From an uncultured Spirochaetaceae bacterium (GTDB lineage Bacteria > Spirochaetota > Spirochaetia > SZUA-6 > RPPD01), in assembly GCA_964634205.1 (NCBI GenBank), contig CAZWKE010000001.1, forward strand, positions 33,325 through 97,324: a DNA stretch of 64,000 bases, in the 5' to 3' direction. This document shows, piece by piece, positions 23,993 through 48,898 of the stretch (positions are counted from its first letter, which is position 1; each line of letters opens with the position of its first letter). A model generated the notes under the pieces. That model was given only the letters and a program-made list of their open reading frames with translations. It was not told the origin of the DNA and did not search any database. The translations under genes were made by a program, and so were the position numbers.

Positions 23993-24076
23993 ACCTTCCT
24001 TTTCTTCCCTTTAAATAGTAATGAAAACCTCTGCGGTTTTCAACAGTTCCACCTATTCTTAAGAATGCTTTTTTTA

Positions 24077-24100
24077 TAGTGCTACGAAGCTTGTTGTTTT
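24077..24100 (+). repeat. Solo copy of the IS terminal inverted repeat
   Basis: TA+GTGCTACGAAGCTTGTTGTTTT matches the IS right end (reverse complement GTGCTACGAACCTTGTTGTTTT) at 21/22. Confidence 0.75.
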
Positions 24101-44640: not shown

Positions 44641-44690
44641 TACGATACCTGTGGTTAAAGATATTATGTACTATATCAGAAAACCTTTTA

Positions 44691-44710
44691 TAGTGCTACG
44701 AAGCTTGTGG
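44691..44710 (+). repeat. Solo copy of the IS terminal inverted repeat
   Basis: TA+GTGCTACGAAGCTTGTGG matches the IS left end (ATGCTACGAAGCTTGTGG) at 17/18. Confidence 0.75.
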
Positions 44711-44918: not shown

Positions 44919-45143
44919 ATGTTAAAAGCACAGGTTGAAAAGGCACTTAATGATGTACGTCCCTCGTTACAGGCTGACGGTGGCGACGTGGAACTTGTTG
45001 ATGTGAATGAACAGGGGATCGTAAAAGTAAAGCTGACAGGTGCCTGCCATGGATGCCCGATGTCTCAAATGACATTGAGTAATGGTATTGAACGGTATCT
45101 AAAAAAGCAAATACCCGATGTCACTAAAGTTGAAGCCGTATAA
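44919..45143 (+). CDS. NifU C-terminal domain (Nfu-type) Fe-S carrier
   Basis: VRPSLQADGGDVELV, GACHGCPMS (CxxC); AGGAG RBS. Confidence 0.92.
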   Translation: MLKAQVEKALNDVRPSLQADGGDVELVDVNEQGIVKVKLTGACHGCPMSQMTLSNGIERYLKKQIPDVTKVEAV

Positions 45144-45161: not shown

Positions 45162-45193
45162 AAAAAAGACCGCTTTTATGCGGTCTTTTTTTT
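45162..45193. terminator. Bidirectional intrinsic terminator
   Basis: A6-GACCGC-TTTTAT-GCGGTC-T8. Confidence 0.8.
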
Positions 45194-45208
45194 GTTTCAC
45201 GTGAAACA
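45193..45208. promoter_or_regulatory. parS centromere-like site
   Basis: Perfect palindrome TGTTTCACGTGAAACA, about 550 bp from parA. Confidence 0.92.
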
Positions 45209-45217
45209 TTTTTTTTA

Positions 45218-46469
45218 ATGCTACGAAGCTTGTGGGAAAAAGCAAAACGCAGGTCAAGGGTGTAATACATTGGTAGGATATCCTCTTTTGAAAGGAGAAA
45301 GCACAATGAAAATACCCGAGTTTTGCCCCAATATGCTGTGTAAGCTGCACGACAAGGATAACACAAAAAAACACTGGTTTGCCAGGCACGGCAGGTATTA
45401 TACTAAAACCTTCGGGGTGGTACAGCGCTTTGTCTGTCGCTGTTGCAATAAAACATTTTCCACCCAGACACTTAACATTGATTATTACGCAAAAAAGAAG
45501 CTTGATTATCATGAGTTGGTAAAAAAGCTTGTGTCCACAAGTAGTCAGCGGGATATGAGCCGGGACTTCAAGGTATCTCTGGGTACGGTAAGGAATAAGC
45601 TCGACCGCTTGTCACGACAAGCAATGGCTCTGCACCAGACACTCAAACAAGAGGTAAGCGATCAGGCTGTGGTAGTGGCTGACGGGTTTGAAAGTTTTTG
45701 TGTGTCACAATACTTTCCCAACAATATCCATCTTTTGGCCCTGAAGGATTCCCAGTATATCTGCTATACAAACTATGTAACCATCAGGCGGAAGGGGCGG
45801 ATGACCCCTAAGCAGAAGCTGAAAAGAGAAAGGCTGGAACGGCAGTTCTGGGCCCCGTATAAGGGGATCGAGCTTGAGTTTGCTGAGGTATTGGATGAGG
45901 TAGTCCGGATCCGGGACAACTCCGTATATCCTCGGTTTACCTTCTATACTGATGAGAAACCTGAGTATGTACGGGCCATGAGCAACCATCCTCACGTCAG
46001 CAGCCTGAAACAGCGGCAGCAGCTTGTGCATGAGCAGATATCTTCCCGGAAAGCCCGAACCATCACCAATCACCTGTTTGCGGTAAACTACCTGGACAGA
46101 CAGATCAGGAAGGACCTGGCCGGGCATGTGCGGGAGACCGTGTGTTTTGCTCGTAATGTGAATGACTGTATGAACCGGCTGAACGTATATTTTATGTATC
46201 ACAATTATATAAAGGTGTTTCGGGAAAAACAGCGGCATAAAGATAAGCGGACCCATGCCGAGGTGGCGGGAATTCCTAAGGTGAGCATCCGTAAAGCATT
46301 GCGCTTCATTTTTACCAGGAGGCGATTCTTGTCCTTGGAATCCATTACCGGTTTCAATCTCCGCTTATGGCAGAGACAGTTGTTTACTCCCTTAAAACGC
46401 AGGGTGGAATATGTTCCTAAGTATGCTTTTGCTTAAATGCTCATCTCAAAACAACAAGGTTCGTAGCAC
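45218..46469 (+). mobile_element. Insertion sequence (1252 bp) with about 18-bp TIRs and a putative TA target duplication
   Basis: Left ATGCTACGAAGCTTGTGG; right (reverse complement) GTGCTACGAACCTTGTTG; TA on both flanks; one transposase-like ORF inside. Confidence 0.8.
45306..46436 (+). CDS. Transposase (zinc ribbon + HTH + DDE-like; IS1-related architecture)
   Basis: CPNMLC...CRCC, HTH SQRDMSRDFKVSLGTV, acidic motifs ADGFESF, TDEKPEY and YLDRQIR, HNYIK; AGGAG RBS before ATG 45306. Confidence 0.75.
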   Translation: MKIPEFCPNMLCKLHDKDNTKKHWFARHGRYYTKTFGVVQRFVCRCCNKTFSTQTLNIDYYAKKKLDYHELVKKLVSTSSQRDMSRDFKVSLGTVRNKLDRLSRQAMALHQTLKQEVSDQAVVVADGFESFCVSQYFPNNIHLLALKDSQYICYTNYVTIRRKGRMTPKQKLKRERLERQFWAPYKGIELEFAEVLDEVVRIRDNSVYPRFTFYTDEKPEYVRAMSNHPHVSSLKQRQQLVHEQISSRKARTITNHLFAVNYLDRQIRKDLAGHVRETVCFARNVNDCMNRLNVYFMYHNYIKVFREKQRHKDKRTHAEVAGIPKVSIRKALRFIFTRRRFLSLESITGFNLRLWQRQLFTPLKRRVEYVPKYAFA

Positions 46470-48898
46470 TAACTATCTTTCTCGTCGCGGGCTATTCCCA
46501 CAACATAATCATCATCTCGTATAGAAACGATGCACACACCCATTGCGGTTTTGCCCATTTCCGGAATGCTTTTCAGTTTCAGCTTAATTGTATTGCCGGT
46601 AGAGGTAATGCAGATCAGGTCGTCTTTTTTACGGATATTAAGGGCACTGACAAGTTTCCCGGTTTTTTCGCTCACCTTGTAACATGTCTGCCCCTTGGTC
46701 CCTCTGCCGTGAGGTTTAAAATTATCATAAAGAATTCGTTTGCCGTACCCCATACTGCTGATAAGTACCATATGCTCATCCTTTTGGATGGTAATCGCGG
46801 AAATGACTTTATCATCCGGAGAAAGACGGATGCCTATTACCCCGTGTGAGGTTCTTCCTGTAGGGCGTACGGATTTTTCCTTAAAGCGTAATGCGTAGCC
46901 CTTGCTGGTAACAAGCAGGATATCCTCATTCCCGGCAGAGAGGTTGGCGCCGATCAGCCGGTCGTTCTTGTCCAGGTTGATGGCGATGATCCCCCGCTGG
47001 CGAGCGTTTGAAAAATCACTTGTTTTTACCTTTTTCACAATGCCTTTGCTGGTTGCCATAAAGACGTAATTGTCCTCGGAGAAATCGCTGAGGGAAGCGC
47101 AGGTGGTGATATCCTCATTTTCAGAAAGCGCCAGAAGGGCCTTTATGTGCTGACCCCGGGAGATTTTGGAACCCTCGGGAATCTCGTGTACCTTCAGCCA
47201 GTAGGCTTTTCCCTCGGAAGTAATAAACAATATATAATCATGGGTAGAAGCGATGAAAATTTGGGTGATAAAGTCCTCATCCTTCAATTTGGAAGATGAG
47301 CTTCCCCTGCCCCCGCGGTTTTGCCGTTTATAGATAGAAAGCGGCAGACGCTTGATAAAGCCTTTGTTGGAGATGACGATTACCATGTCTTCTTTTACGA
47401 TCAAATCTTCAATATCAAGTTTTTCGACCTCGTCTGCCACGATTTCCGTTTTCCGTTTATCACCGTATTTTTTGGCAATCTCTTCCATTTCTTCTTTTAC
47501 GACATTCAGAATTTTTCTCTCGCTTGCCAGCAGGTCTTTCAGGCAGGCGATTAGTTTTTTTATTTCCGCCAGTTCCTCGATGATTTTTTGGGTTTCCAGG
47601 CTTGTCAGTTTTTGCAGGCGCATATCCAGGATGGCCTGGGCTTGTTTGGTACTGAGTCCAAAACGCTGTCTCAGGTTTTTCCTGGCCAGATCCACTGTTT
47701 TTGACTGCTTTATAATTTTGATAACTTCATCAATATTATCCAGCGCTATTTTTAAACCTTCCAGGATATGTTCACGTTCCAGGGCCTTTTTCAGATCAAA
47801 CTTACTTCGGCGGATAACCACCTCTTTCCGGTGATCAACAAAACAGGAAATTAATTCTTTCAGATTGACAAGCTTTGGCTTCCCGTGAACCAGGGCGATG
47901 TTGTTGACATTAAAGTTTATCTGCAATTGAGTGTTCGTGAATAACTGGTTTAAAATAACTTTTGGAATCGCACCCCGACGCAGCTCGATGACAATGCGAA
48001 TACCGTTTCTGTCGGACTCGTCCCTGAGATCGGAGATTCCGTCAATTCTATGCACTTTCACCATGTCGGCGATTTTTACAATCAAACTGGACTTGTTTAC
48101 CTGGTAGGGGATTTCCTTGACGATGATCGCATCCCTGCCCCCTTTCAGGGTTTCCAGCACGATCTTGGCGCGCAGTACAATTCTTCCCTTGCCGGTTCTA
48201 AAGGCATCTTTTATTCCTTTTATACCGTAGATTATTCCGCCGGTGGGAAAGTCCGGCCCTTTAATAAAGTATAATAGCTCTTTGGTTGTTATTTTATGAT
48301 TTTCGATGTATGCGGAAGTGGCGGCCGCGATCTCATTCAGATTGTGGGGTGCCATATTTGTAGCCATACCTACGGCGATTCCGCTTGCTCCGTTGGCCAG
48401 TAAAAAAGGAAACGCGCCGGGAAGGACAAACGGTTCCTGGAGCGAATCGTCATAGTTGGGAACAAAGTCCACCGTCTCTTTGTTGATGTCGCGCAGCATT
48501 TCCTCGGCGAGTTTGGCCATACGTGCTTCGGTGTACCGCATGGCTGCGGGAGGATCTCCGTCAACTGAACCGAAGTTCCCTTGGCCGGTCACCACCGGAT
48601 AGCGCAGAGAAAAATCTTGTGCCAGGCGTACCAGTGCATCATAAATTGATTGGTCACCGTGGGGATGGTATTTCCCCAGTACATCGCCGACAATCCTTCC
48701 GGTTTTTTTAAAGGGCCGGTCGGAACGCAGACCCATTTCATTCATGGAATAAAGAATTCTCCGATGAACGGGTTTCAGGCCGTCACGTGCGTCAGGGAGT
48801 GCCCTGCTGACGATTACGGACATCGCATAGTTTAGATAGGATTCTTTGACTTCATCTTCAATGGCTACAGGAATAACCCGGCCGATATGGTCACTCAT
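46469..48898 (-). CDS. gyrA: DNA gyrase subunit A
   Basis: [30 protein letters not shown], GyrA-box QNRGGRG, pinwheel CTD. Confidence 0.98.

Follow-up and report, generated by a model that had tools for sequence, protein, structure and literature searches.

What is the element that stands between gyrA and parS in a 64,000-nt stretch of contig CAZWKE010000001.1 from an uncultured Spirochaetaceae bacterium (hereafter the window), and how did it insert? A first-pass annotation, made from the letters alone, had described an insertion sequence (IS) bounded on both sides by TA and encoding a transposase with an IS1-like head. It read the TA as a target duplication of the IS630/Tc1 type, which left an apparent puzzle of an IS1-headed transposase with mariner-like targeting. 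Our comparison of related copies suggests that the TA instead belongs to the element. The whole is probably best explained by an IS of the IS1 superfamily that makes 8-10-bp duplications, carries the TA internally, and underwent a secondary event at its left end.

The flanking TA dinucleotides

Element coordinates follow the numbering of the window, and the order is given for the plus strand. The features on which the question turns are as follows.

45215 to 46473, plus strand: insertion sequence of about 1,259 bp (homology to relatives that are bounded by direct repeats; terminal inverted repeats)
45215 to 45235, plus strand: left terminal inverted repeat (TIR), TTA ATGCTACGAAGCTTGTGG (inverted-repeat search, comparison with relatives)
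45306 to 46436, plus strand: transposase gene, 376 amino acids (open reading frame list, ATG at 45306)
46452 to 46473, minus strand: right TIR, the minus strand reading TTA GTGCTACGAACCTTGTTG (inverted-repeat search)
46469 to 48898, minus strand: gyrA, 809 amino acids (open reading frame list; Pfam DNA_topoisoIV and DNA_gyraseA_C on an identical protein)

The boundaries at 45215 and 46473 were set by homology and carry an uncertainty of about 3 nt on each side. The ends have the form TTA(A/G)TGCTACGAAGCTTG and enclose a single open reading frame (ORF). Eight T (45209 to 45216) directly follow parS, after which A-A-TGCTACGAAGCTTGTGG opens the left side of the IS; the right side reads ...CAACAAGGTTCGTAGCAC-TAAC. 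The two ends pair over 19 nt (45215 to 45233 with 46454 to 46472) at 89% complementarity. Base 45218 is A in the left TIR and G in the right end, in solo copies of the IS end elsewhere in the genome, and in relatives. The final codon of gyrA and its stop codon overlap with the right TIR; the gene ends GAT AGT TAG, its TAG being the reverse complement of 46469 to 46471 and spanning the IS junction.

TA dinucleotides stand at 45216 to 45217 and at 46470 to 46471, on both sides of the window copy, and invite the explanation that the element comprises 45218 to 46469 and duplicated a TA target, its IS1-headed transposase behaving like that of mariner. The empty-site allele expected under this explanation is ...GTGAAACATTTTTTTTAACTATCTTTC..., and removal of the IS with one TA does restore a natural gyrA end: deleting 45218 to 46471 gives ...GAT AGT TAA, six A, and then parS. 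On re-reading the sequence we found this excision arithmetic, along with every locus coordinate given in the first-pass annotation, to be correct. TA also adjoins the repeat core at about two-thirds of the ends in the family.

We compared the flanks at 36 genome loci, anchoring both ends on the conserved repeat core, (T)TA-NNNNNN-C(G/A)AA(G/C)CTTG, and taking the expectation from mismatched flank pairs. Perfect 8-mer direct repeats at offsets of 1-6 nt outside the core were present at five loci (0.09 expected), and direct repeats matching at 7 of 8 positions at four more (1.0 expected). A further 47 loci, drawn independently from metagenomes, yielded two perfect repeats (0.13 expected), both of 9 bp (AAAGGCTTC and GAATGTTTT). 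Direct repeats of 7-10 bp, which include TATTTTTTTC, GGCGGTGACC, TGTAAAGAAA, TAAGCCTTT, GAATCATT, and TATGTTT, were thus found at 11 related copies in total, 10 of them with repeats of 8-10 bp. Their geometry is constant, with about 3-5 nt, TA included, between each direct repeat and the core. The two nearest relatives share this arrangement. One (L165; 68% protein identity, identical terminal repeat GTGCTACGAAGCTTGTTG) reads AAAACATTAT-TTA-[IS]-TATC-AAAACATTAT, a 10-bp repeat between whose copies the element runs TTA-GTGCTACGAAGC...GTAGCAC-TATC, and the other (L004; 72% identity) reads TATGTTT-CTTA-[IS]-TAAT-TATGTTT.

Because the 7-10-bp repeats enclose the TA, including at these two loci, the TA of these copies lies inside the element and is not a duplicated target, and the same probably holds for the window copy. 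Where footprints survive, the family appears to duplicate 8-10 bp (7 bp at one locus), like IS1. Two further observations argue against TA duplication. Several copies, all of one subfamily, carry AA at the left end and TT at the right end in place of TA, which cannot come from duplication because it is an inverted and not a direct repeat. Moreover, four full copies of one IS, encoding a 411-amino-acid family member in a complete spirochaete genome (G250, C1; L145, L151, L155, and L156), have AA, AA, CA, and TA as their left dinucleotides. The proposed duplication of the IS630/Tc1 type was therefore not borne out: alignment of the flanks of other copies, set beforehand as the check that could refute it, returned longer duplications. 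With the properties of the transposase described below, we consider TA duplication unlikely.

Two side observations concern the flanks of relatives. Many insertions have an AAGG(C/T)TTG-like sequence 4-6 nt past the right end or within the duplication (L022, L025, L029, L031, L038, L083, L015, L040, L200, and L247). It resembles the element's own core (CAAGGTTCG / CAAGCTTCG), and the transposase may prefer targets that resemble its own ends. Separately, two left and two right flanks of the relative with 72% identity occur in all four combinations across metagenome assemblies (L002-L006). The cause is either chimeric assembly across the repeat or recombination of one copy with another, and duplications should be read with caution from metagenome-assembled genomes (MAGs). 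When we sought empty sites for this relative, all contigs with its flanking genes broke at the IS.

The transposase and its kinship to IS1

The first-pass annotation had suspected a poorly classified family with an IS1-like zinc ribbon and helix-turn-helix (HTH), and both suspicions held up. A Pfam search of the 376-residue transposase gave no match, and NCBIfam gave only weak N-terminal matches far under the cut-offs, so that no full-length family model in either collection covers it. The IS1 model (NF033558) scored 22.7 bits against a cut-off of 100 over profile positions 19-107 only, and the ISL3 model (NF033550) scored 23.4 bits against a cut-off of 180 over positions 47-118 only, which correspond to its zinc ribbon and HTH. 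Among 27 diverse family members, 24 matched the IS1 model below its cut-off, 21 matched the ISL3 model, and 13 matched the IS1/IS1595 zinc-domain model. PF03400 matched none of the 27. The IS630 model (NF033545) matched just one, at an E-value of 2.6e-3, which is a further point against TA duplication.

Profile-profile comparison was more informative. Aligned with hhalign, the family alignment A3 matched E. coli InsA at 93.8% (E 1.7e-7) over residues 37-103, comprising the second zinc knuckle and the HTH. Against collected PF03400 IS1 transposases plus InsB it matched at 94.3% (E 1e-7) over 234 columns. This second alignment spans the HTH through all three catalytic positions, places D264 on the IS1 glutamate, and pairs ADGFES with CDEIWSF, TDEK with TDGL, and NYLDRQ with SYVERQ (family and IS1, respectively). 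No homology was detected between A3 and E. coli InsB alone, and the kinship of the catalytic domains is therefore only remote.

The zinc ribbon cysteines (C7, C12, C44, and C47) are invariant in the family alignment and precede an HTH at about residues 68-110. D126 (ADGFES), D216 (TDE), N261, D264, R265, and K269 are near-invariant and Y262 and R268 invariant, the residues from N261 to K269 making up the motif NYxDRxxRK. An AF2 (AlphaFold2) model with a predicted local distance difference test score (pLDDT) of 90.5 has an RNase-H fold in which D126 belongs to strand 1, D216 closes strand 4, and the helix that follows strand 5 carries D264. It contains no insertion domain between the catalytic positions and no helical insertion from strand 5 to the catalytic helix. 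Its Foldseek matches were retroviral integrases and the ISCth4, Metnase, and Mu transposases. We infer that D126, D216, and D264 form a D-D-D triad in which D264 would replace the glutamate of IS1. The 48 residues that separate D216 from D264, where elements of the mariner type have 34-35, again speak against that explanation.

A word-indexed search returned more than 1,400 matches to the transposase, falling into 1,004 clusters at 50% identity. Relatives are encoded at 419 genome loci, the best 80 of which are almost all in Spirochaetota MAGs and isolates. Judged from sequence comparison, the family appears to be a remote offshoot of the IS1 superfamily, of D-D-D type and lengthened at the C-terminus by a helical extension of about 100 residues. 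Since the duplications and the catalytic domain are both IS1-like, the paradox of an IS1 head with a mariner target disappears.

Empty sites and the age of the insertion

The genes and signals on the far side of the element bear on whether it is an insertion at all.

44919 to 45143, plus strand: NifU-like gene, 74 amino acids (open reading frame list; PF01106 on the same protein)
45162 to 45191, both strands: bidirectional intrinsic terminator hairpin serving nifU and formerly gyrBA (terminator prediction)
45193 to 45208, unstranded: parS palindrome TGTTTCACGTGAAACA (read from the sequence)

The terminator has a 12-bp stem with T runs on either side and scored positive on both strands. The 16-nt sequence beside it is a perfect palindrome, which we take to be parS from its match to the established consensus.

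Searching 41 related genomes with the joined flanks (a 400-nt query), we found two of the same genus, G002 and G003, that match the full query as one piece without the IS. Read in the sense of gyrA, G002 has ...GAA GAA TAA with parS following immediately (0 nt), and G003 has ...GAA TAA, 17 nt, and then parS. The hairpin terminator and nifU are contiguous after parS in both. This contiguity implies that gyrA stop, parS, terminator, and nifU is the ancestral order and that the window carries a 1.26-kb insert. The element is a true insertion between the end of gyrA and parS, and the earlier statement that it splits gyrA from its parS and terminator agrees with the arrangement in these two genomes. 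So does the expectation of near-neutrality for GyrA: the protein is essentially intact, ending ARDEKDS* where congeners end ARDEKEE*, ARDEKE*, or ARDENE*, with its length within one residue of theirs. No form of the empty site turned up when metagenome contigs were scanned for exact patterns.

In G001, a third congener, the same gyrA-parS junction is occupied by an unrelated insert of 3.3 kb (L109, G001:C53:2300-6400), which carries a gene for a 534-residue ankyrin-repeat protein and a gene for a 279-residue protein. The gyrA-parS junction is thus a variable spot in the genus. We rejected this insert as a relative of the IS: its by-eye likeness to the left end was not significant by blastn or tblastn, and it holds no transposase remnant.

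The window genome, an 85-contig MAG, contains one full copy of the IS. Eight further public assemblies encode an identical or near-identical transposase, in every case between nifU and gyrA, and no second insertion site was found in any assembly holding the element. The IS junctions are the same across strains except that the T tract at 45209 to 45216 is seven or eight long. Because site and junctions are shared with the eight other assemblies, the insertion is older than the split of these strains; the window copy is an old, fixed, vertically inherited single copy. The transposase coding sequence differs between strains at 26-34 of 1,131 positions with all ORFs intact, and the ratio of nonsynonymous to synonymous polymorphism (pN/pS) is 0.22-0.48. 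Strains also vary at the third-last gyrA codon (window 46478), which encodes Lys or Asn (ARDEKDS versus ARDENDS). Elsewhere in the genome are two short fragments of related transposases, at C20:21624-21944 and C37:35292-35435, with 41% and 38% identity, respectively. They are the remains of earlier invasions by other members of the same family.

Solo ends and miniature derivatives

Beside its one full IS, the genome carries the IS end alone, as a solo copy, in about ten places.

44690 to 44710 (core 44694 to 44710), plus strand: solo IS end, TA GTGCTACGAAGCTTGTGG (17/17 match to the left end)
24076 to 24096 (core 24080 to 24096), plus strand: solo IS end (intergenic; T tract and TA precede)
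Genome positions C1:27150, C1:32701, C1:165423, C15:39858, C39:8397, and C78:124: further solo ends

These copies share their limits, consisting of a T tract, (A/G)TA, GTGCTRCGAAGCTTGTKG, and another T tract, with no other IS sequence. All lie in intergenic regions, and several face a gene located 70-390 nt downstream. The copy at 44690 lies 525 bp upstream of the left end in the same orientation, between parA and nifU, and is present in all strains. We rejected the idea that genes adjacent to solo ends, several of which encode about 390-410 residues, are a hidden transposase family, as they are unrelated housekeeping genes. The sister species G001 has five solo motifs and no transposase. One of these has no counterpart in the window genome (G000), the intergenic DNA being too diverged to delimit the inserted piece. 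G250 has at least seven miniature inverted-repeat transposable elements (MITEs; L252-L258) of about 85 nt, each consisting of two facing ends (ACTGACGCCAGTTTTGTTGTT ... AACAACAAAACTGGCGTCAGT), beside its four full copies. Solo ends and MITEs are most simply scars and miniature derivatives of the IS, and a regulatory role for the solo ends is possible but unsupported.

Two related proposals would give them a function. The first has two separate parts: that the fixed transposase and the solo ends are a working pair, the protein acting as a regulator on end-derived, operator-like sites or moving one-ended minimal elements in trans, and that the family constitutes a D-D-D clade of the IS1 superfamily, confined to Spirochaetota, that has not been described before. 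It draws on the recurring unit of T tract, TA, 18-nt repeat core, and T tract, most instances of which lie upstream of unrelated genes; we think it quite unlikely. The second holds that the fixed single-copy transposase has been domesticated, at least in part, and binds the approximately ten solo ends as a regulator or supplies mobile promoter or operator modules. The excess of uniform, intergenic, and in several cases gene-facing solo ends over full copies is consistent with this, as are the confinement of the IS to one fixed site without a duplication, its mutated left terminal base, its intact ORF, and the presence of five motifs in G001, which has no transposase. Nevertheless, all three predicted catalytic aspartates are intact, and a pN/pS of 0.2-0.5 represents weak constraint over a small strain divergence. 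The G001 solo end that is not at an orthologous place implies that these sequences behave as insertions or scars rather than as conserved operators, and solo ends and MITEs of about 85 nt also accompany multicopy relatives that look active. Domestication is accordingly a doubtful reading that we give little credence. Finally, although the solo end at 44690 exactly copies the left end and forms an inverted pair with the right repeat, the notion of a composite 1.8-kb unit, delimited by this solo end and by the right end at 46473, that brought nifU, terminator, and parS here is highly improbable, since congeners without any IS show the same parA-nifU-terminator-parS-gyrA order and these features are therefore ancestral rather than cargo.

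A possible history of the window copy

The window copy itself has no target duplication. The ten bases outside 45215 (AACATTTTTT) and the ten outside 46473 (TATCTTTCTC) agree at 5 of 10 positions, no more than chance predicts in T-rich DNA. If the element is an IS1-superfamily IS with an internal TA, its history could be reconstructed as follows. The zinc ribbon and HTH of the transposase presumably read the conserved repeat core. The element would have inserted within the last codons of gyrA, about the only spot in an essential gene likely to tolerate it, such that the IS end would now supply the gyrA stop codon together with the second and third bases of the Ser codon. Native bases, including the original stop, would have been lost, because excision with zero duplication leaves gyrA without a nearby stop. 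IS1 is known to make adjacent deletions as well as insertions, and a deletion of this kind may have begun at the left end and reached into the T tract next to parS. Such a deletion fits because copies of the family usually have T-rich DNA on their left, both at surviving duplications and at every solo end. Vertical inheritance as a single fixed copy would have followed.

Several points weigh against this account. It needs an extra deletion that was not observed, and the simplest reconstruction from the single copy is that of TA duplication. The junctions in G002 and G003 are 71-74% identical to the window, so the exact sequence before insertion cannot be read from them. Clean duplications flank only about 10-25% of related copies; the four full copies in G250 show none in any left/right, left/left, or right/right pairing, and neither do the G250 MITEs. 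Insertion without duplication may be frequent in the family, or the chemistry at its ends may be variable. Part of the missing duplications probably stems from chimeric assembly across repeats, and part may be real, arising from deletions or cointegrates. The family may also already have a name in ISfinder; a keyword search of the literature found nothing specific to the element.

The insertion may also affect transcription. No minus-strand terminator was predicted inside the IS, which makes read-through from gyrBA plausible. Transcription would then run antisense through the transposase gene as far as the hairpin at 45191, which would help to explain a quiescent single copy. Since the insertion, an essential operon has for some time been without a terminator of its own and with parS displaced by 1.26 kb, making the locus a natural test of how important the origin-proximal gyrA-parS arrangement is.

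The finding is mostly an ordinary one, a known kind of element whose TA puzzle is resolved, and this should spare others from pursuing it. Its broader value lies in the more than 1,000 protein clusters labelled hypothetical or "transposase-like" that become assignable to the IS1 superfamily and gain defined ends and a predicted Asp-for-Glu active site. This assignment benefits both the annotation of spirochaete MAGs and their IS-aware assembly. The solo ends and 85-nt MITEs offer material for studying how IS ends persist after loss of the transposase.

Comparison with known systems

The family differs from ISL3, of whose model only the zinc ribbon and HTH part is matched and whose helical insertion is missing from the predicted fold. 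Likeness to IS630/Tc1-mariner is confined to the TA adjoining the terminal repeats in most copies and to the D-D-D residues of some IS630/Tc1-mariner members. Unlike in those elements, the TA here is enclosed by longer direct repeats, the D-D spacing is 48 rather than 34-35, sequence models do not match, and the N-terminus is a zinc ribbon instead of a paired-type HTH.

The family resembles IS1 in its progression from zinc ribbon to HTH to a compact RNase-H core without an insertion domain, and in its profile-profile homology to InsA and over the whole catalytic domain. A further likeness may lie in the 8-10-bp direct repeats around some relatives of the window element, and in the many copies without duplication, the window copy among them, as expected with adjacent deletions. 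It departs from IS1 in scoring below the Pfam and NCBIfam thresholds, in the nearly invariant Asp (D264) at the third catalytic position where IS1 has Glu, and in its length, both of the protein (376 residues with an extension of about 100 at the C-terminus, versus about 230-280) and of the element (1.26 kb versus about 0.77 kb). It has a single ORF without a -1 frameshift, whereas IS1 has insA and insB joined by one. Its ends are (T)TA-GTGCTACGAAGCTTG and not of the GGT type, the IS1 end consensus being GGT.../GGnnnTG. Its hosts, judged from the best 80 of the 419 loci, are almost only Spirochaetota. The mixed pattern of duplications seen here would be matched by the ISMhu11 subgroup of the IS1 family in ISfinder, which comprises long single-ORF relatives of IS1 with variable duplications of 0-10 bp.

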